NCBI GenBank assembly: GCA_964579415.1
Contig: CAZOGW010000002.1
Location: forward strand, 14,612-78,611
Source of the DNA: an uncultured Acidimicrobiaceae bacterium
GTDB taxonomy: Bacteria; Actinomycetota; Acidimicrobiia; Spongiisociales; UBA5794
DNA: 64,000 nucleotides
Direction of reading: 5' to 3'
The position numbers and the translations under genes were made by a program. Numbering within the stretch: position 1 is the stretch's first letter; each line of letters begins with the position of its first letter. Below are positions 23,521-63,941 of this stretch, one piece after another. The notes below the pieces were generated by a model. The model was not told where the DNA came from, did not search any database, and saw only the letters and a program-made list of their open reading frames with translations.

Positions 23521-23720
23521 GGCAATCCCCACTACCCGCCGGCCACCACGGCGCAGTCCTTGATGAAGCTGTCGGCTCGTCACCCAGGCGAGGCTAACCC
23601 AGGTGGCGATATAGGCGACTTCCTCGCGGGCAGGCCCGTGCCCGGAAGCGGTTACTCCACGATGCCCTCCCCTGCCACTACAATCCACCCGCCGCCGCCG
23701 GGCCATCCCCCGGGAGAACG

Positions 23721-29208: not shown

Positions 29209-29466
29209 CGCCTGGCGAGCCGTGACCTCGGTCTCGAGCCGGTCGATGCGACCGAGGACGTCCGCGGTGGACTGCTTCACCACCGCGTCGCCCCTGAGAC
29301 GCTTCCATAGCTCGCTCACGTTACGCGCCTTCCCGTCACACACCGCGATCCGGTACCCGGCCGAAACCCGGCCATCGGTGTAAGACGGCACCTTAGGACG
29401 TACGCGGATCGCGGTGACCCTAAAATGCCGGTCGCTCTTCTTCCCCCACCAGCGAGGTGCCGGTTC

Positions 29467-32514: not shown

Positions 32515-32519
32515 CCCAC

Positions 32520-33707: not shown

Positions 33708-33709
33708 GG

Positions 33710-34582
33710 ATGCAGATGAGCGTGATCGATGTCGGAGGACGCCCGGTCGGCGACGGTGAGCCTGTCTACGTCATCGCCGAGATCGGGATCAACCACAACG
33801 GCGACGTCGAGATCGCCAAGCAACTCATCGACGTCGCGGTGGAGGCCGGGTGCGACGCGGTGAAGTTCCAGAAGCGCACCCCCGAGATCTGCGTGCCGCT
33901 CGACCAGCGGGACAAGATGCGGGAGACGCCCTGGGGCGATATGACGTACCTGGCCTACAAGGAGCGCACCGAGTTCTGGGAGTCGGAGTACCGGCAGATC
34001 GACGAGCACGCCGCCGGCCTCGGTATCCAGTGGTTCGCCTCGCCGTGGGACGTGCCCTCGGTCGACTTCCTCGAAGGGTTCGGCGTACCCACCCACAAGG
34101 TGGCGTCGGCCAGCCTCACCGACGAGGCGCTACTCAAGGCGCTGGCGGCGACCGGCAAACCTCTCATCGTCTCCACCGGCATGTCGACGATCGACGAGAT
34201 CGACCGCGCCATGGAGTTGCTGGCGGGGTCGGATGTGGTCCTTCTCCACTCGACGTCGACGTACCCGTGCCCCCCCGAGGAATCCAACCTGAGGACCATC
34301 ACCACCCTCCGGGAGCGTTACCGCGTCCCGGTCGGCTACTCGGGCCACGAACGCGGGTTGCAGGTCACCCTGGGAGCGGTGGCGCTGGGAGCCGTCGCCG
34401 TCGAGCGCCACATCACCCTCGACCGGACCATGTGGGGATCGGACCATGCGGCCAGCGTCGAACCGCAGGGTTTGCGCCATCTGGTCCGCGACATCCGCAT
34501 CATCGAGACGGCGTTGGGTGACGGGGTCAAGCGGGTCTTCCCCGGCGAGGAGGAGCCGCGGCGGCGCCTCCGCTCGGCGTGA
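33710..34582 (+). CDS. neuB: NeuB-family nonulosonic acid synthase (TIM-barrel only, short form lacking the C-terminal SAF domain)
   Basis: VYVIAEIGINHNGD...AKxAG.DAVKFQKRT...LxSTGMSTIDEIDRAM...HSTSTYPCP. Start ATG 33710 is preceded by the gagga RBS, and its TGA overlaps the neuA stop. Confidence 0.85.
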   Translation: MQMSVIDVGGRPVGDGEPVYVIAEIGINHNGDVEIAKQLIDVAVEAGCDAVKFQKRTPEICVPLDQRDKMRETPWGDMTYLAYKERTEFWESEYRQIDEHAAGLGIQWFASPWDVPSVDFLEGFGVPTHKVASASLTDEALLKALAATGKPLIVSTGMSTIDEIDRAMELLAGSDVVLLHSTSTYPCPPEESNLRTITTLRERYRVPVGYSGHERGLQVTLGAVALGAVAVERHITLDRTMWGSDHAASVEPQGLRHLVRDIRIIETALGDGVKRVFPGEEEPRRRLRSA

Positions 34583-44964: not shown

Positions 44965-45075
44965 CGTCCGCTGCGCGAGTCGAACCGGCGGCCAGACCAG
45001 GGGGATCCACCGGGGGAAACCCCGAGTTTACCTCAGCGTCATTTCCAAGGCATCATCATGCGGCGTCCGCTCACG

Positions 45076-46785: not shown

Positions 46786-47539
46786 ACGCTGCGAGCACCT
46801 CGTCCACCGTCCCGTCGAGATGGATCTTCCCCTGCTCGAGCCACATGGCGCGGCTGCACGTGGCCCGAATCTCGTTCATGTTGTGCGTCACCATGACGAT
46901 GGAGCCGGCGTTGGCCTGCAGGTCCCGGATCCGAGCCATGCTCTTGCGTTTGAAGGTACGGTCACCCACCGCCAGCGCCTCGTCGATGAACAGCAGCTCG
47001 GGTTGCTGCAGCGTGGCGATGGCGAACGCCAGCCGCGCCCTCATCCCCGACGAGTAGGTGCGCAGCGGCCGCCTCAGGGCCTCGCCCAGCTCGGTGAAAT
47101 CGGCGACTTCCTCGATGCTCTCGCGGATCTCGCTCATCGGCATTCCCATGGCGAGGCAGCCGATTGTGATGTTGCGGTAGCCGGACAGCTCCGGCTTGAG
47201 GGCTGCCCGCACCGTGAGCAGCACCGGCTCGGAGCGGACCAGGACCGACCCCGATGTCGGTTGCAACAGGCCGGCGAGGGCACGCAGCAGCGTGCTCTTG
47301 CCCGACCCGTTGGAGCCGACGATGCCGACCACCTCGCCGACGTCGATCTGGAACGTCACTCCCTTGACCGCGTGCACCTCGTCGGAGACGCGGCTGCGGA
47401 AGCCCCCGCTCATCATCCGGCGCAGGGTGAACGATTGCTCCTCGTAGACCTTGAACCGCACGTGGATGTCGTCCGCCACGATGGCCGGTGTCCCGGTGGC
47501 GATGCTCCGCTCGGTGACGACGGCGCGCTCAACTGCCAT
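46769..47539 (-). CDS. ABC transporter ATP-binding protein of the polysaccharide/teichoic-acid exporter type (TagH/KpsT/Wzt-like, no C-terminal carbohydrate-binding extension)
   Basis: Walker A GIVGSNGSGKST, signature YSSGMRARLAFA, Walker B LLFIDEA, and the H-loop. Overlaps the permease gene by 11 nt. Confidence 0.85.
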   Translation of the reverse strand: MAVERAVVTERSIATGTPAIVADDIHVRFKVYEEQSFTLRRMMSGGFRSRVSDEVHAVKGVTFQIDVGEVVGIVGSNGSGKSTLLRALAGLLQPTSGSVLVRSEPVLLTVRAALKPELSGYRNITIGCLAMGMPMSEIRESIEEVADFTELGEALRRPLRTYSSGMRARLAFAIATLQQPELLFIDEALAVGDRTFKRKSMARIRDLQANAGSIVMVTHNMNEIRATCSRAMWLEQGKIHLDGTVDEVLAAYDSQE

Positions 47540-48371: not shown

Positions 48372-48633
48372 GCGAACAGCTTAGCGAGAGCCGATCTGTA
48401 GCCCTGATCTCCTGCGGGGAGGTGGCTGGGACGGTGGAGGTCTCTGTGGGTATCGGGCGGTGGACATCCGGCGTGTCGCCGGGGCCGTGGGCGGTACACC
48501 GCCCGCCCCCCAGGGCCCGAGGGACACGACCATGATCGTAGTGAAGGGAGATCGGAGGAGATGGTGACGGCATACGGTTGCCCGGTCCGCGGTCGCATCC
48601 ACCACGGACGAGCTATGCACCCGTGGGCGTGAC

Positions 48634-49929
48634 ATGAGGCTCCTGGCGATTGCCCTTTCGGTGCTGGTGGCGCTGACAGGGCTCGGCGGCTCCGTCGCGT
48701 CCGCCGCACAGGGGGACGACGAGCGTCGGCGCATCGGATATCTGGCGGGTGACGAGGGGAAGGATTGGCACCTGAAGCACTTCCCGGTGCCGCACCGCAA
48801 GGTGGTCGGCTCGGAGTCGTACTACCTCACCTTCGACGACGCCCAGACCGAGAACACGGTCGCGCTTCTCGATGGGCTGAAGGCATGGCCGGACGTCAAG
48901 ATCACGTTCTTCGTCAACTGCTACGAGATGAGCCCCGGCGTCTACCAGCGCATCCTCGACGAGGGCCATGCGATCGGGAATCACACCTGCAACCACGTCC
49001 CTCTCACCGAGCTCGGCAAGCAGGGACGCACCGAACAGTTCGACAAGCTGCGTCGCTTCGTGATGGCGCGTGTGGATCCCGACAAGGCCATTGGCTGTTA
49101 TCGGCCCCCGTTCGGGCTCACCAGCGACTCGGTGCGCGATCACGCCTGGAACTCGCTGGATCTTTACGAATGGGGATGGAACGTCAATACCGAGGACTAC
49201 GAGTACCCCGGGACCGCAGCCATCCAGCATGACCTCGACACCATGCGCGCCGGCGATATCGCTCTCATGCACACGTCGAGAGGCAAGTCGGCGACGGTGC
49301 AGGCGACGTTGAGCCACCTGGCCCGGTATGCCGGGATGCGGTCGTACGAGGTCCTTCCCGGGTGCGCCACGTATGCGCCGCCTCTCTGCCAGGGCAGGCC
49401 TGCCACCATCGTGGGGACGCCGAAAGGGGACCGGATCAAAGGCACGTCCGGCGACGATGTGATCTGGGCCGGTCCCGGCGACGACGTCGTCCATGCCCTG
49501 GCCGGTGATGACATCGTCTGCGGCGGCGGGGGTTCCGACGTCATCCACGGCGGGCCCGGAGACGACGTGCTGTCGGGGGAGAAGGGGAAGGACGTTCTGC
49601 GGGGCGGTCCCGGTAGCGACCTGTTGGATGGTGACACCGGCGCCGACCGGCTCTACGGAGGAAGGGGCAGCGACACGCTGCGCGGCCGTACCGGCTCCGA
49701 CCGGCTCTGGGGCGGTCCCGGAGCGGACCACCTGTACGGCGGCAAGGGAGCCGACCACCTGCGCGGCAACGCCGGCGACGACCGGCTGGTGGGAGGACCC
49801 GGAAGCGACCACCTCCGCGGCGGCAAGGGAGCCGACATATTGCGCGGTGGCGCAGGCACCGACATCTGTATCGGTGGACCGGGAGCGGATGCCGGACATC
49901 TCTGCGAGACGACGGTATCCATCCTCTGA
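48634..49929 (+). CDS. Secreted CE4 (NodB-homology) polysaccharide deacetylase fused to a C-terminal RTX beta-roll
   Basis: Signal peptide MRLLAIALSVLVALTGLGGSVASA; CE4 motifs TFDDA and GNHTCNH; N-cap CQGRPATIVGTPKGD; about 18 GGxGxD repeats; terminal CIGGPGADAGHLCETTVSIL. Confidence 0.8.
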   Translation: MRLLAIALSVLVALTGLGGSVASAAQGDDERRRIGYLAGDEGKDWHLKHFPVPHRKVVGSESYYLTFDDAQTENTVALLDGLKAWPDVKITFFVNCYEMSPGVYQRILDEGHAIGNHTCNHVPLTELGKQGRTEQFDKLRRFVMARVDPDKAIGCYRPPFGLTSDSVRDHAWNSLDLYEWGWNVNTEDYEYPGTAAIQHDLDTMRAGDIALMHTSRGKSATVQATLSHLARYAGMRSYEVLPGCATYAPPLCQGRPATIVGTPKGDRIKGTSGDDVIWAGPGDDVVHALAGDDIVCGGGGSDVIHGGPGDDVLSGEKGKDVLRGGPGSDLLDGDTGADRLYGGRGSDTLRGRTGSDRLWGGPGADHLYGGKGADHLRGNAGDDRLVGGPGSDHLRGGKGADILRGGAGTDICIGGPGADAGHLCETTVSIL

Positions 49930-52757: not shown

Positions 52758-53594
52758 TCAACCTCGGGCGATCTGCGACGCCACCACTTCGGGGAGGGAG
52801 TCCTTCCAGTGGGGGAGGTCGGGGAGGCCCAGCGGGGCGCGGCGCTCCGAGGCGAGGACGGAGTAGGCGGGGCGGGGAGCGGGACGGGGGAACTCCTCTG
52901 TGGCGCAGGGGACCACCAGGGTCGGGTCGAGGCCGGCCAACCGGACCGACTCGGCGGCGAGCCCGTGCCAGGTGGTGACACCTTGGTTGGTCAGGTGCAG
53001 GATCCCGGAGACGCCGGCGTCCAGCGCCGCCAGGGTGGTGGCGGCGAGGTCGTCGGCGACGGTGGGGCACCCGTGCTGGTCGTCGACAACCCGCAGCCCG
53101 CCCGATCGCGCCAAGCGGAGCATGGTGGCGACGAAGTTGGGGTGGGTTCCTGAGATCACCCACGAGCTGCGCACCACCAGTGCCCCCGGGTGTGCCGCCA
53201 GGGCACGCCGCTCCCCATCCCGCTTGGTGCGGCCGTAAGCGTTCAGCGGCGCGGTGACGTCGCCCTCGACGTAGGGCCCACCCTTGGTGCCGTCGAACAC
53301 GTAGTCGGTGGAGAAGGTGACCAGCGGAATGCCGAGGCGGGCGCACACCTGTGCCATCTCCTCGACGGCCTCGGCGTTGACCAGGTGGGCGGTCTCCTCG
53401 TCGGTCTCGGCGGCGTCCACCGCGGTGTAGGCGGCGCAGTTGATCACGGCCTCGGCGCCGGAGTCCTCCACCCAGGGACCGATGGCGGCCGTGTCGACGA
53501 GATCGAGCTCGGAACGGTTGGGGAAGCGGGCCCCGGGGAGCAGGCCCCGAAAGGCGGTGCCGAGCTGGCCGCTGCCCCCGGTGACGACGATCAA
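52758..53594 (-). CDS. rmlD: dTDP-4-dehydrorhamnose reductase
   Basis: [12 protein letters not shown]...YxxxK (YGRTK) short-chain reductase of the RmlD type. A 4-nt overlap with rmlA. Confidence 0.85.
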
Positions 53595-54466
53595 AGCCCC
53601 TCCCGCTCCTCGGCGACGATCTCCTCGAGGTAGGCGCGGTAGGCCGACCCGGGCATGGCGTCCACCAACTCGCCCAGATCGTCGAGGCTCACATAGCCGC
53701 AGCGGAAGGCGATCTCCTCCAGGCAGGCGATCTTGCTGCCCTGCCGGTGCTCGACGGTGGCGATGAAGTTGGCGGCGTCGAGGAGGCTGTCATGGGTACC
53801 GCTGTCGAGCCAGGCGATGCCGCGGCCGAGGCGCTGCACCCGCAGGGCTCCACGTTCCAGGTAGTGCCGGTTGAGGTCGGTGATCTCCAGTTCCCCGCGG
53901 CCCGACGGCTCCAGGCTGCGGGTCGTCTCCACCACTTCGGCGTCGTAGAGGTACAGGCCGGGGACGGCGTAGCGGGATCGGGGCTGGCGGGGTTTCTCCT
54001 CGAGCGATATGGCCCGCCCCTCGGCGTCGAACTCGACGACTCCGTAGCGCTCGGGGTCCCGCACCGGGTAGGCGAAGACCAGCGCCCCGCTGGTGAAGGT
54101 GCGCGCCGCCTCGGCGAGCCCCATGGTGCCGTAGAAGATGTTGTCCCCGAGGATGAGGGTGACCGGCTCCCCGCCGATGAAGTCGGCGCCGATGAGGAAC
54201 GCCTCGGCGATGCCGGCGGGCCGGTCCTGGGTGGCGTACGAGAAGGTGACGCCCCACTGCGACCCGTCGCCCAGCAGCGATCGGAACCGCGCCTGGTCGA
54301 CCGGTGTCGTGATCATGAGGATGTCGGTGATCCCGGCCAGCATCAGCGTCGACAGCGGGTAGTAGATCATCGGCTTGTCGTACACCGGCTGGAGTTGCTT
54401 GGAGGCGACCCGCGTCATCGGGTCGAGCCGGCTCCCGGCGCCTCCGGCGAGGACGATGCCCTTCAT
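53591..54466 (-). CDS. rmlA: Glucose-1-phosphate thymidylyltransferase
   Basis: [18 protein letters not shown]...[17 protein letters not shown]...ILGDNIFYG. Confidence 0.9.
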
Positions 54467-54526
54467 CGCCGAACCGTCCCTTCAAGTTGCGATCCCATGT
54501 GCGGGTCCTCCCGGAGCGCGATGCGG

Positions 54527-55075
54527 TTAGTCGAAGATCACGGCGTCGGCCAGCGCCGGAGCGGCGCCGTCCTTCGCCGACAGGACGGGGTCGATGCCTT
54601 CGAGCGGCCAGGTCACGCCGATTGCGGGATCGTCCCAGCGGATGGAGCGGTCGGCCTCGGCGTCGTAATAGTCGGTGACCTTGTAGAGCACCTCGCTGCC
54701 GTCTTCGAGGGCGACGAAGCCGTGGGCGAAGCCGGGCGGCACCCAGAGCTGACGCTTGTTCGTCGCACTCAGCTCGAGGCCCACCCACCGGGTGAAGGTC
54801 GGCGAGGAAGCACGGATGTCCACCGCGACGTCCCATACCGCCCCGGCAACCACCCGCACCAGCTTCCCCTGGGGGCGGGGTAGCTGGTAGTGCAACCCAC
54901 GCAGCACCCCACGCGCCGAGCGGGAATGGTTGTCCTGAACGAACTCGGCGGAGATCCCCGCTATCTCGGCCACCTTGGCCCGGTGGTACGCCTCGAAGAA
55001 GAACCCGCGTTCGTCGCCGAACACGGCCGGCTCGATGACCAGCACCTCGGGTATCTCGGTTTCGGTCACCTTCAT
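54527..55075 (-). CDS. rmlC: dTDP-4-dehydrorhamnose 3,5-epimerase
   Basis: FGDERGFFFEAY...RGLHYQ...QGKLVRVVAGAVWDVAVDIR...VPPGFAHGF. Confidence 0.9.
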   Translation of the reverse strand: MKVTETEIPEVLVIEPAVFGDERGFFFEAYHRAKVAEIAGISAEFVQDNHSRSARGVLRGLHYQLPRPQGKLVRVVAGAVWDVAVDIRASSPTFTRWVGLELSATNKRQLWVPPGFAHGFVALEDGSEVLYKVTDYYDAEADRSIRWDDPAIGVTWPLEGIDPVLSAKDGAAPALADAVIFD

Positions 55076-55241
55076 GGCGGTCGGTCTTCCTGGTTGAGAG
55101 CGGGGCCGCGGCGGGTGGGCACGGCAGCGAGGATGCGCCTGTCGGAGTCCGGGAGCGTGGCGATTCTAACGTTTCTGAGGGCCCTCTCCGGATGCCGGCC
55201 GCGGGCCCCATACCGCGGTACAGTGGCATCGGCGCAACAAG

Positions 55242-57191
55242 GTGTCTGGCGCAGTGGAACCTGCGTGTGTCACCGGGGTCGATGCTGGAGGCCGGATGCC
55301 TGAATCGAGAGTCAAGGCGTATCTGCCGCCGGGGATCGGCGACAATCGCCTCCTCATCGACGGCACCGATGGCAATCAGCGGCCGTTGGATCCCGACATC
55401 CCCGACGGATTGGCCATCATCGGTCCCTACTGGACCCGTGCCACGTGGTCCAACGGCAAGTACAACGACATCTCCTGGCTCGGCCATCGCATGAAGCAAC
55501 TCCCCGAGGACATCGTGATGCTCCAGGAGGTCTTCTGGGAGGTTCGCCCCCACGTCGTGGTCGAGACCGGCGTCGCCGATGGCGGCAGCTCGGTCTTCTG
55601 GGCATCGCTGCTCGCCGTGAGCGGTGGGCGGGAGGTCGTGGCGATTGACATCACCATCCCCGAGAGCGTGAGGGAAGCGATCGCGGCTCACCCGCTTGCG
55701 GGACTGATCCACCTCGTTGAGGGAGACTCGGTGGATACGAGCGTCATCCACGCCGCCCGCGCCCGCGTCCGGGCCGACGATCGGGTGATGGTGGTGCTGG
55801 ACAGCAACCACACCGAAGCCCACGTCCTGGGCGAACTCGACGCCTACGCCAGCCTGGTCACCGCCGGCTCGTACATCGTGGTCACCGACGGTGTGATGCA
55901 GGTACTCTCGGACGCCCCCAAGGGTCGGCCCGAGTGGGAAGGCGACAACCCGCTCACGGCCATAGAGCGGTGGCTGCCCCAGCACGCCGAGTTCGTCCGC
56001 GACCTGCACCGGGAACACCTCGGGGCCACCTACTTCCCGGGCGGGTGGCTGAGGAGAGTCGGCGACCCACCCGCGACCGAGGATCCGGCGACTCCGTGGG
56101 GCGAGCCATTGCAGCACCTCCATCAGGGACGCGAGGAATGGAGGGTGAACGCTTTCGAGACGGAACGGCGTCGCCAGCAGGCAGAAGCGGAGAGGGACGG
56201 TGCAATGGGAATAGCCTCTGCACTGCTCGACTCCACCTCGTGGAGGGTGGGCCATGCCTTGGTGGGACCGTTGGGCAAGGCCCTCCGCCGACTGCGAGGA
56301 CAGCCCGCCGCAGTCGACCCGAGAGATCGACTAATACGGGAGAATCCAGAGCGACTGGAGCTCACCAACCTTGCCCGACGACACCTCGATTTGCTCAAAC
56401 GGTCGCTCACCGACTCGTTGCGTGGAGATCCGTACCGTCCATACGCACCCGACCGCGGCACCGAGGCGGACGATGCCTGGGTCCGGCTGCGCGGCCTGCT
56501 GGACCGCGGCGACGTGGAACTGGTTCGCCGCGTCGGGTACGACCCGGAGCGACGCGCAGTGGGAGGCGATTGGCCGTTCCTCGGGGAGACGATGGTGGGC
56601 ATGGCGCGCCTCGACAACCTCCAGGATTGCGTCGAGGCGGTCCATCTCGCCGGCGTCCCCGGCGATCTCGTCGAAACCGGTGTATGGCGGGGCGGCGCCT
56701 GCATCCTGATGCGTGCGGTCCTCGCCGAACTAGGAGACAGGTCTCGCCAGGTGTGGGCCTGCGATAGTTTCGAGGGCCTACCCCCACCCGATGAGGCCAC
56801 CTATCCCGCCGACACTGGCGATCGGCATTGGAGGCGGGGTGAGCTGGCGGTTTCGTTGGCCGAGGTCAAGCAGAACTTCGCCCGGTATGGGCTCCTCGAC
56901 GACCAGGTTCGCTTCGCCAAAGGATGGTTCGAGGACACTCTCTCCCAGCTGCCCACCGAGACGATCGCCGTGCTCCGCCTCGACGGCGACATGTACGGGT
57001 CGACGATGGTGGCTCTCGAGTCCCTCGAGCCGAAAGTGCCGCCGGGCGGCTTCGTCGTCGTCGACGACTACGGCGCCATACCTGCCTGCCGTCTGGCAGT
57101 TGACGACTACCGACGGGACCAGGGGATCGATGATCCCATCGAGCCGGTGGACTGGACTGGTGTCTTCTGGCGCAAACGGCGAACCCGATAG
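55242..57191 (+). CDS. Didomain sugar O-methyltransferase: N-terminal CmcI/rhamnosyl-O-MT-like domain plus a C-terminal TylF/MycF (macrocin O-MT)-like domain
   Basis: N-domain: ISWLGHRMKQLPEDIVMLQEVFWEVRPHVVVETGVADGGSSVFWA (CmcI-family). C-domain: LVETGVWRGGACILM...WACDSFEGLPPP...AVLRLDGDMYGSTMVALESLEPKVPPGGFVVVDDYG (TylF-family). The start could be the downstream M at 55296. Confidence 0.75.
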   Translation: MSGAVEPACVTGVDAGGRMPESRVKAYLPPGIGDNRLLIDGTDGNQRPLDPDIPDGLAIIGPYWTRATWSNGKYNDISWLGHRMKQLPEDIVMLQEVFWEVRPHVVVETGVADGGSSVFWASLLAVSGGREVVAIDITIPESVREAIAAHPLAGLIHLVEGDSVDTSVIHAARARVRADDRVMVVLDSNHTEAHVLGELDAYASLVTAGSYIVVTDGVMQVLSDAPKGRPEWEGDNPLTAIERWLPQHAEFVRDLHREHLGATYFPGGWLRRVGDPPATEDPATPWGEPLQHLHQGREEWRVNAFETERRRQQAEAERDGAMGIASALLDSTSWRVGHALVGPLGKALRRLRGQPAAVDPRDRLIRENPERLELTNLARRHLDLLKRSLTDSLRGDPYRPYAPDRGTEADDAWVRLRGLLDRGDVELVRRVGYDPERRAVGGDWPFLGETMVGMARLDNLQDCVEAVHLAGVPGDLVETGVWRGGACILMRAVLAELGDRSRQVWACDSFEGLPPPDEATYPADTGDRHWRRGELAVSLAEVKQNFARYGLLDDQVRFAKGWFEDTLSQLPTETIAVLRLDGDMYGSTMVALESLEPKVPPGGFVVVDDYGAIPACRLAVDDYRRDQGIDDPIEPVDWTGVFWRKRRTR

Positions 57192-57210: not shown

Positions 57211-58860
57211 TCAGGGGGCGCACACCACGGCACCGATGATCAGGTAGCCGGTGGCGGTGACCGCGTAGGGGTTGGCGGCGCGGACCTTCGGGTACTGCGA
57301 CGCCGGGAGCCCGAGGCGGACGGTCACCGACGCCCAGCCCTCCCCCTTCTTCACGCTGACGCAGGGTCGGTCGGTGACTCGCGCCTTCAACGTGAAGTAG
57401 GCCGACTTGAGGCCGAAGGTGGAGCGTACCCAGGCGCCGGAGCGCTCCACGGTGGCGGGCTTGCCGTCCTTGTAACCGGAGAACTCCACGGTCTTCGCCG
57501 AACCGCCGGCGGTGCGCGCCTTCACCTTCACCGACCCGACCTCGTCGAGACCGGTGGCCTTCTCCACGTCGGCGACTGCCACCGAAGCCCGCCACGAGGC
57601 GTTGGGGTTGGGGACGCTGCCGTCGACGGCCCAGACGTCGTTCACCGACTTGTAGTAGGGCACGGGCGGGGAGACCCGGACGTCCTGGATGCTTTCGGTG
57701 CGGCCGCCGGTCGACGAGCTGTAGTAGGCGCGCACTATCCCCTGCTGGGGAGCCTTCGGGTGGGTGACGACGACATCGGCGGTGGACGACACCGCCTCGG
57801 CCCAGTTCGCCTGGAGGTGACCGTAGCCGACGTAGCGCTGGTCCCAGGTGGTGTCACGCACGTGGCAGAAGGCGTCACAGACGTTGGTGGAGAGCTTTCC
57901 CCGGGTTAGCTGGAGCTCTCTGGCGTAGGACCGGGCGGCGACCGCCTGCGCCCGTAGCGCCGCCATCCCCTTCCCCGAGCCCCAGTGATAGGGCATCTCG
58001 GAGATGCCGAGCAGGTAGTCCTCGAGGCGCAGACGAACCGAGAGGTCCAGGCCGCCGGGACCGGACCTGAGATGGAGCTTGCCGTGGGCGTAGCGGCACC
58101 CGCGCGACACCGAGGGGATGACGTTCCAGTCGGTGTTGGTGCAGCCGATGACGGCGACGGCGGTCTTCGGCTTGGCGCCGGCTCGGTTCCACCGGTACCA
58201 GGAGAAGTCGAAGTTGCACGGCCCTGAGGAGATCTCGGTCTTCTTCCCGCTCGGCCCGGTGATGGTGAGGGCACATGTGCTCGACCCCCTGATGGTGATG
58301 GTGCTGCCCGGCGGCGCCGACCACTCGTCGTCGCCCCGGGTGATGACCACCGGCTTGCCTTCACCCGAGATGGCGTCGACGCGCAGCTTCTTCGACGTGA
58401 AGTCCTGCTCCAGGTTCACCACGATGGGCGAGGTGGCGTCGCGGCGGCCGGTCCCCAGCTTTCGCGTCTTCGATGCGGCGTAGTAGTGCCCCAGGATCAC
58501 CCGGTAGCTCTTGCCCTTGAGCGCCATGGCATAGGCGCCCCACTGCGACATGCCGAGGCCGTGGCCCCACCCCTTGCCGTCGAAGTCGAGGGCACGCATC
58601 ACCTTCCTCTCGACCGGCTGCCCGCCCGTTCCGTCGGGCTGTGCCACCACCCCGATTGCGGGCAGCAGCAGAGCCACCACGACCATCACGATCAGCACGG
58701 CACGGCGTCCCACCGCAGGCAACCTAGTGGTCCGTCGCCCATATGACGATCGGGCGCGGCATCCCGGGGACGGATCGGCACCCAGCCCGCGGGGTTCGGA
58801 CCTCCACGGCGCCCCGGCGAGGAATGGGTCGGCCGCACCGGTGTGCCCGGCGGTTCCCAT
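57211..58860 (-). CDS. SpoIID/LytB-domain protein (amidase enhancer-like) with one C-terminal Cys-framed LysM-like domain
   Basis: SpoIID core (GKGWGHGLGMSQWGAYAMA...RAYYSSSTGGRTE). C-terminal CVSVKKGEGWASVTVRLGLPASQYPKVRAANPYAVTATGYLIIGAVVCAP. One TM or signal anchor; the start may be the internal GTG near 58713. Confidence 0.7.
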   Translation of the reverse strand: MGTAGHTGAADPFLAGAPWRSEPRGLGADPSPGCRARSSYGRRTTRLPAVGRRAVLIVMVVVALLLPAIGVVAQPDGTGGQPVERKVMRALDFDGKGWGHGLGMSQWGAYAMALKGKSYRVILGHYYAASKTRKLGTGRRDATSPIVVNLEQDFTSKKLRVDAISGEGKPVVITRGDDEWSAPPGSTITIRGSSTCALTITGPSGKKTEISSGPCNFDFSWYRWNRAGAKPKTAVAVIGCTNTDWNVIPSVSRGCRYAHGKLHLRSGPGGLDLSVRLRLEDYLLGISEMPYHWGSGKGMAALRAQAVAARSYARELQLTRGKLSTNVCDAFCHVRDTTWDQRYVGYGHLQANWAEAVSSTADVVVTHPKAPQQGIVRAYYSSSTGGRTESIQDVRVSPPVPYYKSVNDVWAVDGSVPNPNASWRASVAVADVEKATGLDEVGSVKVKARTAGGSAKTVEFSGYKDGKPATVERSGAWVRSTFGLKSAYFTLKARVTDRPCVSVKKGEGWASVTVRLGLPASQYPKVRAANPYAVTATGYLIIGAVVCAP

Positions 58861-58919
58861 CGGTACTCTCCTCGACGACGCAGCGGGGAGGGGCTCGCTG
58901 CGACACGAAGGGGTCCCGC

Positions 58920-60371
58920 ATGTCTCGCATTGCCCAGACGACCGGCCGCGATACGCGGCGGCGTCGCAACCGTCGCGTCCTGATCGTCACCGTGGCGCTG
59001 TGGGCCTTGCTGCCGGTGCATGCCGGCGGCGCCTCCGCTGGTGGTCACCAGCCGGAGGACGCCACGGTGGGTTCGGCGGCCGAACCCGAGGATCTCACCC
59101 GACCGCTCGCCGCCCCACAATCGGGCCCGGCTTCCACCGGCGGCAGGGCCGTGGTGTACTTCGGCATCGACGACGGGCCTTCCTGCTCCGACAAGGTGAC
59201 CTGGGGAATGCTCGACCTCTTCGCCCGCCACGGCGCAAGGGCCACCTGGTTCGTCACCGGCAATGTCAACTGCAACTCTGACGCTCTCCGGGCCATCGTG
59301 ACCGGCGGTCACGCGGTGGGAAGTCACACCTACGGCCACGACAACCTGACACGGCTCTCCCACGGGGCTCGCCTGGCCACCTTCGACAAGCTGCAGTCGG
59401 CTGTCACCCGGCACGGCGGCCCCAAGATGACCTGCTACCGGCCGCCCTACGGAGCCACCAACAGCTCGGTGCGGGCCTCGGCGGCCCAGCGTGGGATGGT
59501 GGAATGGCTGTGGAACGTCGACCCGCGCGACTGGAGCGACCCGGGCGTCTCCAAGATCCTCGCCAGCTTCAACCGGCTCGAGGACGGTGACGTGGTGGTG
59601 ATCCACGACGGCAACAGCAACCAGCAGACTCTCGACGCCCTGCGCATCTGGCTGCCCGCCAACGCCTCCCGGTTCGCGCTGAGGCCGCTCCCGGGGTGTG
59701 CCGCCGCAGAACCGCTGCGGTGCCAAGGCGAGCCGGCGACCATCATCGGGACCGACGGCGACGACATCCTTCAGGGCACACCGGGTAGGGACGTGATCTG
59801 GGGTGGGGAAGGCGACGACACCATCCGTGCGGGAGCGGGCGACGACGTCGTCTGCGGCGGGCCCGGCGACGACAAGATCTACGGCGAAGCCGGCAAGGAC
59901 ATACTGGCGGGAGGGCCGGGGAAGGATGATCTCATCGGCGGGCAAAACGCCGACACCCTCAAGGGAGGGCCGGGAGCGGACCGGCTGTGGGGCGGGAAGG
60001 GCGCCGACACGCTCAGCGGTGGTCCGGGCGCAGATGAGCTCTACGGCGGTCCCGGACCCGACACCCTCCGCGGCGGGTCCGGTGCCGACCAGTTGCGAGG
60101 AGGCAGTGGCGCCGACAGGATGTGGGGAAGCACCGGGCAGGACCTCCTGTCGGGTGGCTCCGGCGCCGACAGGATATGGGGGAACGCCGGGCGGGACCTC
60201 CTGTCGGGGGGACCCGGCGCCGACGTCTTAGCCGGGGGGGACGGGCACGACACGCTGGTGGGGGGCCGCGGGCCTGACGTCCTCAGAGGCGGGCCGGGCC
60301 GTGACACCTGCCGCGGCGGGCCGGGCATCGACAAGGCCACATCGTGCTCGACGGTGAGCAGCGTGCCCTGA
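58920..60371 (+). CDS. Secreted CE4 polysaccharide deacetylase fused to a C-terminal RTX beta-roll (paralog of 48634-49929)
   Basis: Signal peptide RRRRNRRVLIVTVALWALLPVHAGGASA; CE4 motifs (GIDDGP, GSHTYGHDN); N-cap CQGEPATIIGTDGDD; about 22 GGxGxD repeats; terminal CRGGPGIDKATSCSTVSSVP. Confidence 0.8.
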   Translation: MSRIAQTTGRDTRRRRNRRVLIVTVALWALLPVHAGGASAGGHQPEDATVGSAAEPEDLTRPLAAPQSGPASTGGRAVVYFGIDDGPSCSDKVTWGMLDLFARHGARATWFVTGNVNCNSDALRAIVTGGHAVGSHTYGHDNLTRLSHGARLATFDKLQSAVTRHGGPKMTCYRPPYGATNSSVRASAAQRGMVEWLWNVDPRDWSDPGVSKILASFNRLEDGDVVVIHDGNSNQQTLDALRIWLPANASRFALRPLPGCAAAEPLRCQGEPATIIGTDGDDILQGTPGRDVIWGGEGDDTIRAGAGDDVVCGGPGDDKIYGEAGKDILAGGPGKDDLIGGQNADTLKGGPGADRLWGGKGADTLSGGPGADELYGGPGPDTLRGGSGADQLRGGSGADRMWGSTGQDLLSGGSGADRIWGNAGRDLLSGGPGADVLAGGDGHDTLVGGRGPDVLRGGPGRDTCRGGPGIDKATSCSTVSSVP

Positions 60372-60406
60372 CCGGGCCGCGGCCTGGCGCGCTACGCTGC
60401 GGGCCC

Positions 60407-60835
60407 ATGCCGTCCGCTCGCTTCGTCCACGCCGCTATGTCCCCGCGCTCTCCTCGCGAGGTGTGGGACGGGCTCCAGGATGCGTCCACCTGGGCCAACA
60501 TCGGCCCGGTGGAGCAGGTGTGGGAACCAGTCCACGCCTCGGAGGCGCTGGTGTCCTTCAAGTGGCGGACCACCGTAGGCCCCACCCGCTATGACGGTGT
60601 CGCCAAGGTCGTCACTTCCGACCCCCTCCAGGCGATGGAGCTGAGCCTCGACGCCGGTGAAGTGACCGGATCGCTGCGCACCGACCTTGCCCCGGAGGCC
60701 ACGGGCACCCTCATCACGGTGACGCTGGTGGTGGTGTCCCGGGGACTGCTGTCGACGATGTTCTTCCCGGTCATCTCCGAGGCGGTGGGGAAAGGTCTCG
60801 CCGCCCAGGTGGAGCACTTCGCCGCGACGCTTTGA
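60407..60835 (+). CDS. SRPBCC (START/Bet v1/polyketide-cyclase-like) small protein
   Basis: 142 aa. The N-terminal RFVHAAMSPRSPREVWDGLQD pattern matches the SRPBCC beta1-alpha1 signature; it has a helix-grip-length C-terminal helix. Confidence 0.5.
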   Translation: MPSARFVHAAMSPRSPREVWDGLQDASTWANIGPVEQVWEPVHASEALVSFKWRTTVGPTRYDGVAKVVTSDPLQAMELSLDAGEVTGSLRTDLAPEATGTLITVTLVVVSRGLLSTMFFPVISEAVGKGLAAQVEHFAATL

Positions 60836-60836
60836 G

Positions 60837-60865
60837 AGGTACTAGGTACTAGGTACTAGGTAGGT
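60837..60865. repeat. Tandem heptamer array (GTACTAG)x3, a one-base variant of the GTACTTG arrays
   Basis: Read directly: gaggtactaggtactaggtactaggtagg, between two convergent stops (60835 and 60856). Confidence 0.85.
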
Positions 60866-63012
60866 GGGCATACCTTGGCGCCGGGTTTGAGGTGGCCGGC
60901 GGTATTTACCGCCTTGGGGTTGGCTGCCCGCACGTCGGGGTAGCGGTCCCACTTCAGCCCGAGCCGGATGGTGACGGCGACCCAGCCCTCACCGCTCTCG
61001 ACGGTGAGACATCTGTCCTTCTTGGGTGGGTTCGTCGGCTTGTCGTCGGTGGACGATCCGGGGGCGCAGACCTTGGCGCCCAGTTTGAGGAAGCCGGCGG
61101 AGTTGGCAGCCTTGGGGTTGGCCGTCCGCACCTCGGGGTAGCGGTCCCACTTCAGCCCGAGGCGCATCGTCACCGCAACCCAGCCCTCACCCTTCTTGAC
61201 CTTGACGCACTTGGCGTTCTTCGGGGGATCCTTGGGCTTGTCATCGGTCTTGTCGTCGTCGGTCGACGACCCGGGGGCGCACACCTTGGCCCCGATCTTG
61301 AGGTAGCCGGCGGCGTTCACCGCCTTCGGGTTGGCCTCACGCACCGCAGGAAGGTCCGAAGCAGGCAACCCCAGCCGGGCAACCACCTTCGACCAACCCT
61401 CGCCCTTCTTCACCTTGACGCACTTCTTGGGCGGGTCCTTGGGTTTGTCGTCTGTCGACGATCCGGGGGCGCATACCTTGGCCCCGATCTTGAGATGGCC
61501 GGCGGGGTTCACCGCCTTCGGGTTGGCCGCCCGCACCGCGGCGATATCCGAAGCAGGCAAGCCGAGCCGGGCAACCACCTTCGACCAACCCTCGCCCTTC
61601 TTCACCTTGACGCACTTGGTCGGGTCGGTGCCGTCCCCGTCGGGTGAGCTGCCGTAGGACACCGAGAAGTGGGTCGACTTGAGGTCGAAGGCCGAACGAA
61701 CCCAGGTGCCCTGACGCTCCACGGTCACAACCGCCCCGCCGCGGGTGCCGGTGAAGGCCACTGTGTGGGCGGAACCGCCGGCGGTGCGCCGGGTCACCTG
61801 CACCCCGTCAAGCCTGTCGAGCCCTGCGAGCCGGGCCACGGTCGACGCCGACGGTGAGGCGGTCCACGACCTGTGCGGGTTGCCAACGGTGCCGTCGATA
61901 GCCCACGAGTCGTTGACCGACTGCAGGTAGGGGATCGACGACCCGCCCCGGATCTCGTGGTACGCCTCGGTACGCCCGCCGGACGATGAGCTGAAGTAGG
62001 CGCGGACCACGGTCTGGTGCGGGGCCTTGGGATGCGAGACCACCAGTCCGGCGGTCGAGCGCACCGCATCGGTCCACGAGTCCTGGCCGTGACCGTAGCC
62101 CACGTAGCGCTGGTCCCAGGTGCTGTCGCGGACGTGGCAGTAGGCGGCACAGGCGTTGTCGCCCGCCGGGCCCCGGTAGATCATCAACTCCCTGGCATAG
62201 GAGCGGGCGGCGACCGCCTGGGCCTGGAGGGCGGCCATGCCCTTGCCCTTGCCCCAGTAGTAGGGCATCTCCGAGATCCCCAGCAGGTAGTCCTCGAGGC
62301 TGAGCTGGACGGAGAGATCGAGGCCGCCGGGCCCGGAGCGGAGGTGCAGCATGCCACGGGCGTAGCGGCACTCACGGGCCTTGGTGGGGCTGACGTTCCA
62401 GTCGCTGTTGGTGCAGCCGGCGATAGCCACCGCCGACCTGGGGTTCGCCTTGGGACTCTTCCAGTCGTACCAGACCAGGTCGAAGGCACACTTGCCCGAC
62501 GGGATCGTGGTGCTCTTTCCCTTGGGAGGCTTGATGACCAGGGAACACTCGCTGCCGCCGTCGATGGTGATGGTGCTGCCCGGCGGCGCCTTCCACGTCT
62601 TGTCCCCGCGGACGATCTTGACGGTGTCGCCGCTCCCGGAGATGGGGTCGACTCGGAGTGTCCTGGATCGGAAGTCCTGTTCCAGGTTGACCACGATCGG
62701 GGGCGACGCCTTGCGGCTCCCGGTACCCAGGGCGGCCACGGTGGAGCCGGTGAAGTAGTGCTCGACGATCTTGCGGAAGTCGGACCCCTTCATCGCCATG
62801 GCGTAGGCACCCCATTGCGACAGGCCGATGCCGTGGCCCCACCCGCTGCCCTTGAAGGCGACGGAGGCGGACGCCTGGGAGGCGGTGTCGGAGGTCCCCC
62901 CTTCCTCGGCTCGGGCACCCGGCGAAGGCGCTAGCAACATGAGCATGGCGGCCACCACGGCAACGACGAACGGGCGCACCGACCAAGACTCTCCCAATCT
63001 CATGGGAGTCAC
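60856..63012 (-). CDS. SpoIID/LytB-domain protein with four C-terminal Cys-framed LysM-like repeats separated by SSTDDKPKDPPK linkers
   Basis: Signal peptide (VVAVVAAMLMLLAPSPGARA) and SpoIID core (GSGWGHGIGLSQWGAYAMA...RAYFSSSSGGRTE). Four copies of C[VL][KT]V[KE][KS]GEGW..V..RLGL.....[AV]R.ANPKA.N.AG.LK.GAKVC.P. Confidence 0.75.
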   Translation of the reverse strand: MTPMRLGESWSVRPFVVAVVAAMLMLLAPSPGARAEEGGTSDTASQASASVAFKGSGWGHGIGLSQWGAYAMAMKGSDFRKIVEHYFTGSTVAALGTGSRKASPPIVVNLEQDFRSRTLRVDPISGSGDTVKIVRGDKTWKAPPGSTITIDGGSECSLVIKPPKGKSTTIPSGKCAFDLVWYDWKSPKANPRSAVAIAGCTNSDWNVSPTKARECRYARGMLHLRSGPGGLDLSVQLSLEDYLLGISEMPYYWGKGKGMAALQAQAVAARSYARELMIYRGPAGDNACAAYCHVRDSTWDQRYVGYGHGQDSWTDAVRSTAGLVVSHPKAPHQTVVRAYFSSSSGGRTEAYHEIRGGSSIPYLQSVNDSWAIDGTVGNPHRSWTASPSASTVARLAGLDRLDGVQVTRRTAGGSAHTVAFTGTRGGAVVTVERQGTWVRSAFDLKSTHFSVSYGSSPDGDGTDPTKCVKVKKGEGWSKVVARLGLPASDIAAVRAANPKAVNPAGHLKIGAKVCAPGSSTDDKPKDPPKKCVKVKKGEGWSKVVARLGLPASDLPAVREANPKAVNAAGYLKIGAKVCAPGSSTDDDKTDDKPKDPPKNAKCVKVKKGEGWVAVTMRLGLKWDRYPEVRTANPKAANSAGFLKLGAKVCAPGSSTDDKPTNPPKKDRCLTVESGEGWVAVTIRLGLKWDRYPDVRAANPKAVNTAGHLKPGAKVCPPT
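60900..61650. repeat. Four near-identical coding tandem repeats (about 160-185 nt unit) inside the SpoIID gene, encoding the LysM-like modules
   Basis: Long identical runs (e.g. ggtagcggtcccacttcagcccgag...; ccttcttcaccttgacgcacttg... recur). Conservation at the nucleotide level is higher than amino-acid constraint would need. Confidence 0.8.
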
Positions 63013-63044: not shown

Positions 63045-63630
63045 CCTGACCGCCGAAGCCGCGGGAGGGACGAAGCTTCTTCATCTCCCCCCGGGCTTTG
63101 ACGGGGGGAGTGGCCCGCCCGCAGGCTTTGCGGAGGGCGGGTCGAGGGGGGTCTTCATCGCTCACCCTCCCCCGGCTCGCAGCCAGCTCAACACGGACCT
63201 GGGACGAAGACCCCCTCCGTCCGATCGGATCGGAACGAGACTGCGGACGCGATGAGGTCTGATCGCGCCAGGTCAGCCGATCGGACACCTCCCCCGCCGA
63301 AGCGGCGGGGGAGGATGAAACCCGACCCCACGAAGCGGCGGGGGAGGACGAAGCTTCTTCATCTCCCCCCGGGCTTTGACGGGGGGAGTGGCCCGCCCGC
63401 AGGCTTTGCGGAGGGCGGGTCGAGGGGGGTCTTCATCGCTCACCCTCCCCCGGCTCGCAGCCAGCTCAACACGGACCTGGGACGAAGACCCCCTCCGTCC
63501 GATCGGCCTACGGCAAGACTGCACCACGCCATCAGGCGTCACTACGCCAGGCGAGCCGATCGGACACCTCCCCCGCCGAAGCGGCGGGGGAGGATGACAC
63601 CCGGCCCCACGAAGCGGCGGGGGAGGACGA
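63045..63630. repeat. About 280-bp direct repeat, roughly 2 copies, rich in nested perfect hairpins; non-coding, upstream of the SpoIID gene and downstream of atpC
   Basis: Unit 'gacgaagcttcttcatctccccccgggctttgacggggggagtggcccgcccgcaggctttgcggagggcgggtcgaggggggtc...ccgatcgg...tcggacacctcccccgccgaagcggcgggggaggatga' occurs at about 63066-63345 and 63346-63625. Hairpins: CCCCCCG/CGGGGGG, CCCGCCC/GGGCGGG, CCTCCCCCGCC-gaa-GCGGCGGGGGAGG (x4), and the GAAGCTTC palindrome. Confidence 0.85.
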
Positions 63631-63650
63631 AGACGACCGCAGCGCGCCTG

Positions 63651-63941
63651 TTATCGGTCAGTCGGTGGCGCGGTGCTGTCTTCGATGAGGGCGCGGTCGG
63701 TGATGAGGGTGACCTGATTGGCGAGGACCTGGAGGAAGCCGCCCTCGACGTCTACCTTGGTGCGGGCGCCGTCGGCGCCGTCGACGTGGACGATGCCGGG
63801 AACGAGAGCGGCCATCACCGGCTCGTGGTCGGCCATGATGCCGATCTCGCCGTCGGGGGTGCGCGCCACCACGAAGGTGGCATCACCGGACCATGCCAGG
63901 CCGTCGGGTGAGACGATGTCGACGCGGAACTCCTTCGCCAT
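63651..63941 (-). CDS. atpC: F0F1 ATP synthase subunit epsilon
   Basis: 96 aa. VDIVSPDGLAWSGDATFVVARTPDGEIGIMADHEPVMAAL...GGFLQV is the canonical epsilon beta-sandwich. Confidence 0.85.
   Translation of the reverse strand: MAKEFRVDIVSPDGLAWSGDATFVVARTPDGEIGIMADHEPVMAALVPGIVHVDGADGARTKVDVEGGFLQVLANQVTLITDRALIEDSTAPPTDR

Follow-up and report, generated by a model that had tools for sequence, protein, structure and literature searches.

Two genes in DNA from an uncultured Acidimicrobiaceae bacterium encode SpoIID/LytB-domain proteins that end in a LysM-like module with two conserved Cys residues, carried once by the product of gene A and four times by the product of gene B. The locus raises the question of what this module is, what it does for the enzyme to which it is attached, and whether the four-copy array is a repeat whose number can change, as the initial annotation had suggested, or a settled part of the protein. 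The window, that is, the whole stretch of 64,000 nucleotides that was analyzed, contains the following features of the two genes.

57211..58860, minus strand: gene A, SpoIID/LytB paralogue of gene B with an identically permuted core (ORF, PF08486, TIGR02669)
57214..57363, minus strand: module A1, LysM-type, single, at the C terminus of gene A (repeat alignment, HMM scan)
60856..63012, minus strand: gene B, predicted secreted SpoIID/LytB-family protein with four C-terminal Cys-framed LysM modules (ORF, PF08486, TIGR02669)
62908..63003, minus strand: predicted Sec signal peptide of gene B, MRLGESWSVRPFVVAVVAAMLMLLAPSPGARA (by eye)
62728..62883, minus strand: GxGWGHGxGxSQWGA...HYF segment, residues 44-95 (phmmer to PDB chains)
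62308..62727, minus strand: beta-rich insert of about 140 aa, residues 96-235 (outside the PDB alignments)
61651..62307, minus strand: SpoIID catalytic core, residues 236-454 (alignment to 4rwr_A 66-248 and 5i1t_A 63-281)
61465..61614, minus strand: module B1, LysM-type (repeat alignment, HMM scan, model)
61423..61464, minus strand: linker 1, GSSTDDKPKDPPKK, between B1 and B2
61273..61422, minus strand: module B2, LysM-type (91% DNA identity to B1, dS 0.24)
61210..61272, minus strand: linker 2, GSSTDDDKTDDKPKDPPKNAK, between B2 and B3
61060..61209, minus strand: module B3, LysM-type (repeat alignment, HMM scan)
61012..61059, minus strand: linker 3, GSSTDDKPTNPPKKDR, between B3 and B4
60862..61011, minus strand: module B4, LysM-type (81% DNA identity to B3, dS 0.53)

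Both SpoIID/LytB open reading frames do end in the module, with one copy in gene A and four in gene B, and the coordinates were verified. Every module spans exactly 50 aa from its first Cys to its final Pro (Cys...Cys-x-Pro), and those of gene B are joined by linkers of 14-21 aa made of Ser, Thr, Asp, Lys and Pro. An HMM scan of the six-frame translation found these five modules (B1 to B4 and A1) and none further in the window, and Tandem Repeats Finder, together with a second repeat search, gave array periods of 192, 198 and 213 nt. The product of gene B, whose GC3 is 0.88, has 718 aa, or 715 aa if the ATG at 63003 is used. With its basic N-region, hydrophobic core and A-x-A end, its N terminus has the appearance of a Sec signal. 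The protein of gene A is 59% identical to that of gene B over 70% of its length. The true start of gene A probably lies downstream of its first ATG, because the orthologue P0151 begins at the hydrophobic signal segment, and the mature protein would begin at about Q74.

The likeness of the module to LysM was borne out by profile homology and predicted fold. A direct search of the module against the Pfam LysM model, PF01476, stayed at 14-16 bits (14.2 bits for B1, E=0.044; 15.9 bits for the four-module region), short of the cut-off of 20.9 bits, and modules B3, B4 and A1 gave no Pfam match whatever. The sub-threshold Pfam matches of the modules are all of LysM type (LysM, LysM_OapA and NMB0315_dom_I). 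When the five-module profile was compared with 1.84 billion representatives, it matched Pfam-positive LysM proteins at E values from 3.5e-10 to 1e-4, and these matches fall on the LysM-domain coordinates of P0125 (E=3.5e-10), P0128, P0130, P0131 and P0133. Alignment by hhalign of 12 Cys-framed modules with 8 domains that pass PF01476 gave a probability of 98.5% and an E value of 2e-15. A profile of the Cys-framed modules only, run against PDB sequences, found no significant solved LysM (best E=0.032).

The AlphaFold model of B1 (pLDDT 92.7; all five models exceed 90), whose input alignment included genuine LysM sequences that may bias it toward the LysM fold, has a beta-alpha-alpha-beta arrangement, with strands at residues 3-5 and 48-50 and helices at residues 12-18 and 23-32. 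The best Foldseek matches obtained with the module model are nearly all LysM (probability 0.9-1.0, TM 0.55-0.66), and the closest relatives in sequence are bacterial LysM of the YxVxxGDSW...AANPxAV type. The modules share the beta-alpha-alpha-beta fold, over about 45-50 aa, with the six-module LysM array of Enterococcus faecalis AtlA (PF01476/CBM50), and they also have the G-[DE]-x-[WL] loop and the conserved Asn of AtlA-type bacterial LysM. Unlike AtlA-type LysM, they score below the Pfam cut-off, carry a three-residue insertion between the two helices, have a Gly in the loop and are framed by a Cys pair. The G, D/E and W of the ligand loop and the Asn of helix 2 are conserved, and the Thr/Ser position of the loop is an invariant Gly (G-[DE]-G-W); GDGW is also found in some genuine LysM, such as the second ones in P0130 and P0131. 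Judged by these comparisons and models, the module belongs to LysM as a genuine, though divergent, member. The Cys-framed LysM subfamily escapes standard domain models, and annotation pipelines leave such C termini unlabelled.

With regard to the enzyme part, gene A and gene B both match PF08486 (E=5e-11; 43.5 bits against a cut-off of 23) and TIGR02669 (134.3 bits for gene A and 143.9 bits for gene B against a cut-off of 83.3), and their scores with the sporulation equivalog TIGR02870 (116.9 and 116.7 bits) lie below its cut-off of 234.75. On this sequence evidence, the two proteins are members of the SpoIID family and not sporulation orthologues; a SpoIID homologue is reported to work outside sporulation (PMC6635528). 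With the SpoIID proteins of Bacillus anthracis (4rwr) and Clostridioides difficile (5i1t, 5txu), gene B shares the (S/A)EMP Glu, SSSGG(R/A)TE and GHGxGxSQxGA. Residues 237-422 of gene B align to 4rwr_A 66-248, and the catalytic Glu, located in ISEMP, is E248 (62269-62271), which is invariant in 98 sequences; the catalytic glutamate of C. difficile SpoIID is E101 (PMC6221140). The core carries a C-x3-C-H, with Cys and His, where C. difficile SpoIID binds zinc. The full-length model of gene A (pLDDT 90.2) has 5i1t as its sole significant Foldseek match.

The order of the parts is different. By phmmer, residues 44-95 of gene B match 4rwr_A 269-320, and residues 52-92 match 5i1t_A 286-326. Since the equivalent of residues 44-95 is C-terminal in crystallized SpoIID, the gene B protein is circularly permuted, with the GHG...HYY segment at the N-terminal rather than the C-terminal side. 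The same segment order is present in 64 of the 64 homologues that could be scored, and the family models align as two stretches. Gene B further differs from crystallized SpoIID in its insert of about 140 aa with four Cys, and in having a wall anchor in place of the N-terminal membrane anchor. The four Cys of the insert are conserved (three are invariant and one is present in at least 90% of sequences), and the equivalent region is all-beta in the gene A model, where the blocks have pLDDT values of 87-98. Nothing equivalent to the insert exists in the solved structures of SpoIID, and a Foldseek search with the gene A model gave no reliable match for it.

The initial annotation held that SpoIID-like proteins activate cell wall amidases, which is imprecise: the established activity is that of a lytic transglycosylase, which cuts glycan strands once the amidase has removed the peptides (PMC6221140). 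The enzymes of gene A and gene B would be circularly permuted SpoIID/LytB lytic transglycosylases, an activity that we infer from their sequences. The CE4 deacetylases and the M15 peptidase that had been placed in the neighborhood were located by an ORF scan of the window, and a large set of wall glycopolymer genes lies there as well.

4256-5773: PF01425 amidase-signature enzyme, not a wall amidase
21124-23733: M15 peptidase
48568-49929: CE4 deacetylase
58743-60371: CE4 deacetylase

A scan of about 40 ORFs of the window found no domain of a peptidoglycan amidase (a SpoIIP-type partner). Glycopolymer genes occupy about 9-57 kb of the window and include those for Stealth phosphotransferases, rhamnose synthesis, NeuB, a glycerophosphotransferase, an ABC transporter and methyltransferases.

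It is probable, in our judgement, that gene A and gene B encode secreted, permuted SpoIID/LytB lytic transglycosylases that are held in the wall by C-terminal Cys-framed LysM. Gene B is like AtlA-type arrays in combining C-terminal tandem copies, low-complexity linkers and a glycan-cleaving enzyme. Carried on disordered linkers of Ser, Thr, Asp, Lys and Pro, its modules are probably independent beads, as in other bacterial LysM arrays, and their binding to a GlcNAc-containing glycan would add up over the copies; the LysM copies of AtlA, which share 65-100% similarity, bind additively (PMC4083421). Given such additive binding, gene B with four modules would be more firmly held than gene A with one, or would have a longer reach. 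Because LysM prefers glycan without peptide stems, the anchor would also suit the substrate of SpoIID, denuded glycan strands.

In AtlA, the T13A exchange lowers GlcNAc5 binding 60-fold, and since the equivalent of T13 is an invariant Gly in the modules, their ligand and affinity cannot be assumed. They may, instead of peptidoglycan, recognize the secondary glycopolymer that the surrounding cluster produces, or a different polymer with GlcNAc, and would then place the enzymes at the site where the polymer is attached. Such a ligand would fit the position of gene A and gene B within the large stretch of glycopolymer genes, the change from Thr/Ser to an invariant Gly at a loop position that is important for binding by AtlA, and the presence in many orthologues of SLH or CWB2 at the anchor position, as SLH and CWB2 anchors bind secondary polymers. 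However, gene clustering by itself is no proof of a ligand, G-D-G-W is present in genuine LysM (the second LysM of P0130 and P0131), other orthologues carry the peptidoglycan binders PG_binding_1 or LysM_OapA, and the LysM studied so far recognize GlcNAc-X-GlcNAc in peptidoglycan or chitin (PMC4083421). A polymer other than peptidoglycan is an unlikely ligand. It is improbable that the Cys frame forms a redox-sensitive clasp, which would allow wall binding only in an oxidizing extracytoplasmic space, or that the Gly loop has retargeted the modules to the glycopolymer of the cluster. If either were true, the modules would represent a functionally new class of bacterial LysM on a structurally undescribed, permuted and insert-bearing SpoIID subfamily.

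The two conserved Cys residues noticed in each module, C3 and C50, proved to be invariant in 12 of the 12 complete modules known. In the B1 model, C3 opens strand 1 and C50 closes strand 2, so that they occupy facing positions on two paired strands, and the Cys counts of the mature proteins are even (six in the core plus two per module). As the two residues face each other across the paired strands, an intradomain C3-C50 disulfide is likely from the model, and in an exported protein it would tie the two ends of the LysM module together. Eukaryotic LysM are reported to have internal disulfides between conserved Cys for stability, and prokaryotic LysM are described as being without them (PMC13027065). 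Disulfide-bearing LysM of eukaryotes, from chitinases and effectors of plants, algae and fungi (Volvox carteri 5k2l, Ecp6, CEBiP), are among the best structural matches of the module; they differ from it in being chitin binders with 15-24% identity to it. If the disulfide is real, the modules would be a bacterial counterpart of the Cys-stabilized eukaryotic LysM, and would provide a compact and possibly very stable glycan-binding tag.

That the Cys residues instead bind metal, or bridge between modules or proteins and so make the enzyme part of a larger complex bound to the wall, is very doubtful. Metal binding by Cys does occur in the family, as indicated by the C-x3-C-H motif at the zinc-site position of C. 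difficile SpoIID. Nevertheless, the confident model places both Cys of the module as cross-strand neighbors, each module has exactly two, including those of single-module proteins, two thiols alone make a poor metal site, and the disulfides reported for eukaryotic LysM are internal (PMC13027065).

As for the array, the four copies had been described as nearly identical in nucleotide sequence, which they are not. B1 and B2 are 91.3% identical in DNA, with a longest exact run of 50-53 nt, B3 and B4 are 80.7% identical, with a longest exact run of 29 nt, and the cross pairs are 62-69% identical, with exact runs of 8-12 nt at most. The dS values are 0.24 for B1/B2, 0.53 for B3/B4 and 0.6-1.3 for the remaining module pairs; for gene A and the orthologous gene of another organism, dS is 0.52. 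The dN/dS of the modules is about 0.2-0.4, which indicates purifying selection on each copy. Divergence of the kind seen between organisms, purifying selection and in-frame units together leave the proposed recent expansion and slipped-strand variability unsupported. Phase variation in the sense of on/off switching finds no footing either, since the units of 192, 198 and 213 nt are all multiples of 3 and a change in copy number would alter only the size of the protein.

We give little credence to the remaining idea that the array varies in size within populations through recombination or replication slippage between copies. The identical run of 50-53 nt and the 91% identity of B1 and B2 could permit unequal recombination on rare occasions, every unit preserves the reading frame, and family members vary in their number of modules (1, 3, at least 3, and 4), with three copies in P0122, the positional orthologue of gene B, versus four in gene B. 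B1/B2, however, is the sole similar pair, the identity of the others being 62-81% and their exact runs 8-29 nt long, and even the closest pairs (dS 0.24-0.53) are as far apart as genes of different organisms, with purifying selection acting on every copy. The three copies of P0122 are only 38-48% identical to each other in amino acids and hence more diverged than those of gene B; such arrays therefore persist without homogenization. Trees of the modules group them by lineage, which argues that the differences were built up over long times. No second allele of the gene B product was found in 5.8 billion protein clusters, where its own cluster has one member. Scans of genome contigs and metagenome contigs yielded no close relative, and the sole match in the genome contigs was an unrelated SpoIID from Oscillospiraceae. 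A duplicated stretch that lies upstream of gene B corresponds to no Rfam family. An assembly artefact was rejected, as 9-38% of positions differ between copies and all of them retain an open frame under purifying selection.

The array is composed of old, diverged duplicates and is most probably no contingency locus, and the copy-number differences in the family appear to be on an evolutionary scale only. It would have grown by single-unit tandem duplications long ago, with purifying selection retaining every copy. With copies that are old and diverged and no switchable repeat, the Cys-framed LysM would be a conventional wall anchor that has taken an uncommon form.

This form is rare. Among 1.84 billion representatives, Cys-framed LysM are confined to four clusters at 50% identity, and in every protein that is complete enough to judge they follow the SpoIID core. 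Two long repetitive proteins were rejected as family members, each with a partial match in many stretches: P0123, which has no LysM, and P0127, which has no module. At the equivalent C-terminal position, proteins homologous to the catalytic part have SLH, FG-GAP/VCBS, PG_binding_1, CWB2 or LysM_OapA. The permuted, Cys-rich subfamily comes mainly from Acidimicrobiia-type metagenome genomes. Its SpoIID/LytB proteins P0004-P0120 have an identically permuted catalytic part (40-55% identity) with six Cys that are conserved with gene A and gene B, of which five are invariant and one is present in at least 90% of sequences. Like gene A and gene B, they combine the enzyme with a C-terminal wall anchor; the type of anchor differs (SLH, FG-GAP/VCBS, PG_binding_1 or CWB2).

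These results correct the idea that the locus encodes a wall-binding protein subject to phase or size variation, and the current understanding stands. They also reveal circular permutation and free swapping of wall anchors in a large group of SpoIID/LytB proteins whose actinobacterial lineages do not sporulate. Knowledge of this permutation and anchor swapping is useful in annotating and modeling the wall-remodeling enzymes of uncultured bacteria.

Genes A and B encode paralogous SpoIID/LytB proteins in open reading frames of coding-type composition (GC3 0.88-0.89). A pattern search located five Cys-framed modules, four of them in gene B and the fifth in gene A, each exactly 50 residues long counting from its opening Cys through its closing Pro:

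60856-63012, minus strand, gene B, 718 aa
61465-61614, minus strand, module B1
61273-61422, minus strand, module B2
61060-61209, minus strand, module B3
60862-61011, minus strand, module B4
57211-58860, minus strand, gene A, 549 aa
57214-57363, minus strand, module A1

The linkers between the modules of gene B are GSSTDDKPKDPPKK, GSSTDDDKTDDKPKDPPKNAK, and GSSTDDKPTNPPKKDR. The initial annotation described these protein repeats correctly, because an HMM of the known Cys-framed modules, run over the six-frame translation of the 64 kb, returned exactly these five domains and none besides. It also took the four copies to be near-identical at the DNA level, whereas their identities are considerably lower and uneven.

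Divergence between module copies
B1/B2: DNA identity 91.3%; longest exact run 50-53 nt; dS 0.24
B3/B4: DNA identity 80.7%; longest exact run 29 nt; dS 0.53
Cross pairs inside gene B: DNA identity 62-69%; longest exact run 8-12 nt; dS 0.8-1.3
Gene B modules versus A1: DNA identity 66-73%; longest exact run 10-13 nt; dS 0.6-0.9

Gene A and its orthologue on contig L002 of another assembly (GCA_046128585.1) are 81% identical, with a dS of 0.52 over 1386 nt. Judged against this value, the younger duplication (B1/B2) is about half the age of the split between the window and L002 organisms, and the older one (B3/B4) is as old as that split. The dN/dS ratio is ~0.2-0.4 for every pair compared; each module copy is maintained by selection. 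Each repeat period (192, 198, and 213 nt) is divisible by three, and unequal exchange could therefore alter protein length only.

In the HMM search of 1.84 billion representatives, the Cys-framed form was limited to four clusters at 50% identity, and a SpoIID core precedes the module wherever enough sequence is present:

Cluster 1: gene B, gene A, and the database proteins P0002 and P0151 (the gene A orthologue)
Cluster 2: P0122, 607 aa, SpoIID plus three modules
Cluster 3: P0121, a 188-aa fragment with two complete modules and part of a third (at least three)
Cluster 4: P0124, a 165-aa fragment with the end of the SpoIID core and one module

The P0122 gene lies on a 4.16-Mb contig downstream of an ATP synthase operon, with a Polyketide_cyc2-like gene beside it and a sugar transferase after it; gene B likewise follows atpC (63651-63941) and has a Polyketide_cyc2-like neighbor (60344-60835). 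Gene B, with four modules, and P0122, with three, are probably positional orthologues. The three modules of P0122 are only 38-48% identical to one another, and a neighbor-joining tree groups the window-lineage modules together, apart from those of P0122, P0121, and P0124. Module copy number therefore shifts over evolutionary time, and the arrays then diverge without homogenization. Together with the dS range of 0.24-1.3 and the selection on each copy, this leaves the proposed recent expansion or slipped-strand variability unsupported; no second allele of gene B was found in the collections searched.

Two other repeats flank gene B. Between atpC and the gene B start (63063-63632) lies a tandem duplication with a unit of ~279 bp; unit identity is 99% across a 166-nt stretch and 89% across 107 nt, far closer than any LysM module pair. 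Each holds a perfect 12-bp GC hairpin, CCTCCCCCGCCG-CTT-CGGCGGGGGAGG (63288-63314 and 63567-63593), and the fold of one unit is far more stable than that of shuffled sequence (z = -4.5). Rfam gave no match for the unit; the rest of the window lacks further copies, and contigs L002 and L003 lack a counterpart. Possible identities are a structured leader, a repeat element bearing a terminator, and a recent duplication within the 5' region of gene B. A perfect 7-nt repeat at 60837-60862 (plus strand AGGTACT x3.7, minus strand ACCTAGT) occupies the 20-nt gap between the convergent stops of the Polyketide_cyc2-like gene and gene B and takes in the last codon and TAG stop of gene B. Because TAG is present in every unit on both strands, slippage here would leave both proteins unchanged.

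The initial annotation called the modules LysM-like and proposed a check against PF01476. That check failed: B1, the only copy to give any match, scored 14.2 bits against a threshold of 20.9, with further sub-threshold matches to NMB0315_dom_I and LysM_OapA, and B3, B4, and A1 had no match at all in a direct Pfam scan. The LysM-like reading is nevertheless right, as judged by profile homology and predicted fold. An HMM of the five window modules, run against the 1.84 billion cluster representatives with no word filter, returned 31 proteins. Each of the six matches sampled beyond the close family (P0125, P0126, P0128, P0130, P0131, and P0133; E=3.5e-10 to 3e-6) passes Pfam LysM, and in four (P0125, P0130, P0131, and P0133) the best-matched stretch is also the best Pfam LysM stretch (for P0125, 137-181 versus 135-180). 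When the 12 known Cys-framed modules were compared as a profile with eight PF01476-passing domains, the match had 98.5% probability (E=2e-15) over 48 columns, the sole gap being a three-residue insertion between the helices of the Cys-framed modules; the profile of these modules alone matched no solved LysM significantly by sequence. An AlphaFold2 module model (pLDDT 92.7, all five models >90), built from a 21-sequence alignment that included true LysM sequences, has a strand (3-5), two helices (12-18 and 23-32), and a second strand (48-50). Foldseek against the PDB matched this model almost only to LysM domains (probabilities 0.9-1.0, TM scores 0.55-0.66), among them those of Volvox, Equisetum, and Pteris chitinases, T. 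thermophilus NlpC/P60, YkuD, MltD, CEBiP, Ecp6, SleL, and CtCBM50. Taken together, the HMM search, profile-profile comparison, and predicted fold settle the predicted identity of the module as LysM.

The two Cys residues, already described as conserved, are invariant in 12 of 12 complete modules from six proteins. Compared with ordinary LysM, the first lies one residue ahead of the usual Y-x-V aromatic and the second occupies the x of L-x-I-P. In the model, strand 1 begins with the first Cys and strand 2 ends with the second; because the only two strands must pair together, the two Cys are cross-strand neighbors. The proteins have predicted signal peptides, and Cys counts are even (gene B, 14; gene A orthologue, 8; P0122, 12; a relative without modules, 6). 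The most economical reading would be an internal disulfide joining both ends of each module. The Cys frame is genuine and rare, and is best explained as a disulfide staple. A recent review describes prokaryotic LysM domains as without the conserved disulfide-forming Cys typical of eukaryotic ones (PMC13027065), which makes this subtype unusual for a bacterium. An ordinary Pfam-positive LysM in P0133 (~31-83) has a Cys at the matching C-terminal position (L-C-L-P) and another five residues ahead of the strand 1 start; this domain may represent an independent, or else an intermediate, form of Cys-framed bacterial LysM.

Both genes match Pfam SpoIID (E=5e-11) and exceed the cut-off of NCBIfam TIGR02669 (SpoIID/LytB domain), and both proteins fall well below that of the sporulation equivalog TIGR02870; they are predicted to be SpoIID-family enzymes, not sporulation SpoIID. 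Gene B aligns with solved SpoIID in two blocks of reversed order (237-422 with 4rwr 66-248, 44-95 with 4rwr 269-320), and NCBIfam models likewise match genes A and B in two stretches. Canonical SpoIID ends with GxGHGxGxSQxGA...HYY, whereas in genes A and B this segment sits N-terminally; next come an all-beta insert (~140 aa, four conserved Cys) and the core, whose catalytic Glu (ISEMP) is invariant across 98 sequences. The permuted order was found in 64 of 64 homologues with both motifs scorable, so this circular permutation relative to all crystallized SpoIID is a trait of the subfamily. The permuted core spans 61651-62883 in gene B, with a corresponding stretch in gene A. A literature search found no paper linking SpoIID with circular permutation. 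In a PDB search, the full-length model of mature gene A (pLDDT 90.2) had one real match, C. difficile SpoIID (probability 1.0, E=1.4e-6), and the ~140-aa insert had none that was reliable. A C-x3-C-H motif (gene B residues 288-292, C-A-A-Y-C, then H293; ~62137-62151), with both Cys invariant among 98 homologues, aligns with C140/H145 of the zinc-binding turn, which had been regarded as unique to C. difficile SpoIID. The match points to a metal site or a disulfide here in the subfamily.

Amidase activation, assigned earlier to SpoIID-like proteins, is not their core activity: SpoIID is a lytic transglycosylase that requires glycan strands already freed of peptides by an amidase (PMC6221140). 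A homologue in a non-sporulating bacterium is reported to cleave glycan strands at the division septum (PMC6635528).

Relatives with 40-55% identity in the catalytic part align to only ~55-63% of gene B and carry SLH, FG-GAP/VCBS, PG_binding_1, CWB2, or LysM_OapA at the C terminus in place of Cys-framed modules. These differing domains indicate that the C terminus is an exchangeable slot, presumably for wall retention. By analogy with other bacterial LysM arrays, four-module gene B would be held more strongly than one-module gene A. The T13A change in AtlA, the Enterococcus faecalis peptidoglycan hydrolase with a six-module LysM array, lowered binding 60-fold; the equivalent residue in Cys-framed modules is an invariant Gly, and the ligand therefore cannot be assumed. 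A secondary wall polymer is a reasonable rival ligand, given that genes A and B sit among Stealth, rhamnose, NeuB, glycerophosphotransferase, ABC transporter, and methyltransferase genes. A module preference for stem-free glycan, for its part, would match the SpoIID substrate.

Among the neighboring genes, two adjacent Stealth-family proteins (42196-46875; 943 and 599 aa, CR1-CR4 complete) beside an ABC transporter ATPase, and a NeuB-like synthase, cytidylyltransferase, and glycerophosphotransferase-TPR protein (29311-34582), point to a sugar-phosphate-linked polymer. A 649-aa open reading frame (55242-57191) fuses rhamnosyl O-methyltransferase/CmcI and TylF macrocin-O-methyltransferase domains and adjoins the dTDP-rhamnose genes RmlA, RmlC, and RmlD (52758-55165), pointing to a doubly O-methylated rhamnose-containing wall polymer. 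Long RTX calcium-binding nonapeptide arrays occur in four proteins (9730-11154, 21124-23733, 48568-49929, and 58743-60371; HemolysinCabind E=1e-59 to 1e-107), and three of these proteins have the arrays fused to a wall-modifying domain (CE4 deacetylase in two, M15 peptidase with FG-GAP in one); the fourth has RTX repeats only. Such a set of RTX-tagged cell-wall enzymes is unusual for a high-GC actinobacterial-type genome, and the tags may mark a common secretion or calcium-dependent wall-association route.

The Cys-framed module is a variant of a known wall-binding module on a known kind of enzyme. Its interest is modest and lies mainly in annotation and in the question of disulfide-stabilized LysM domains in bacteria.
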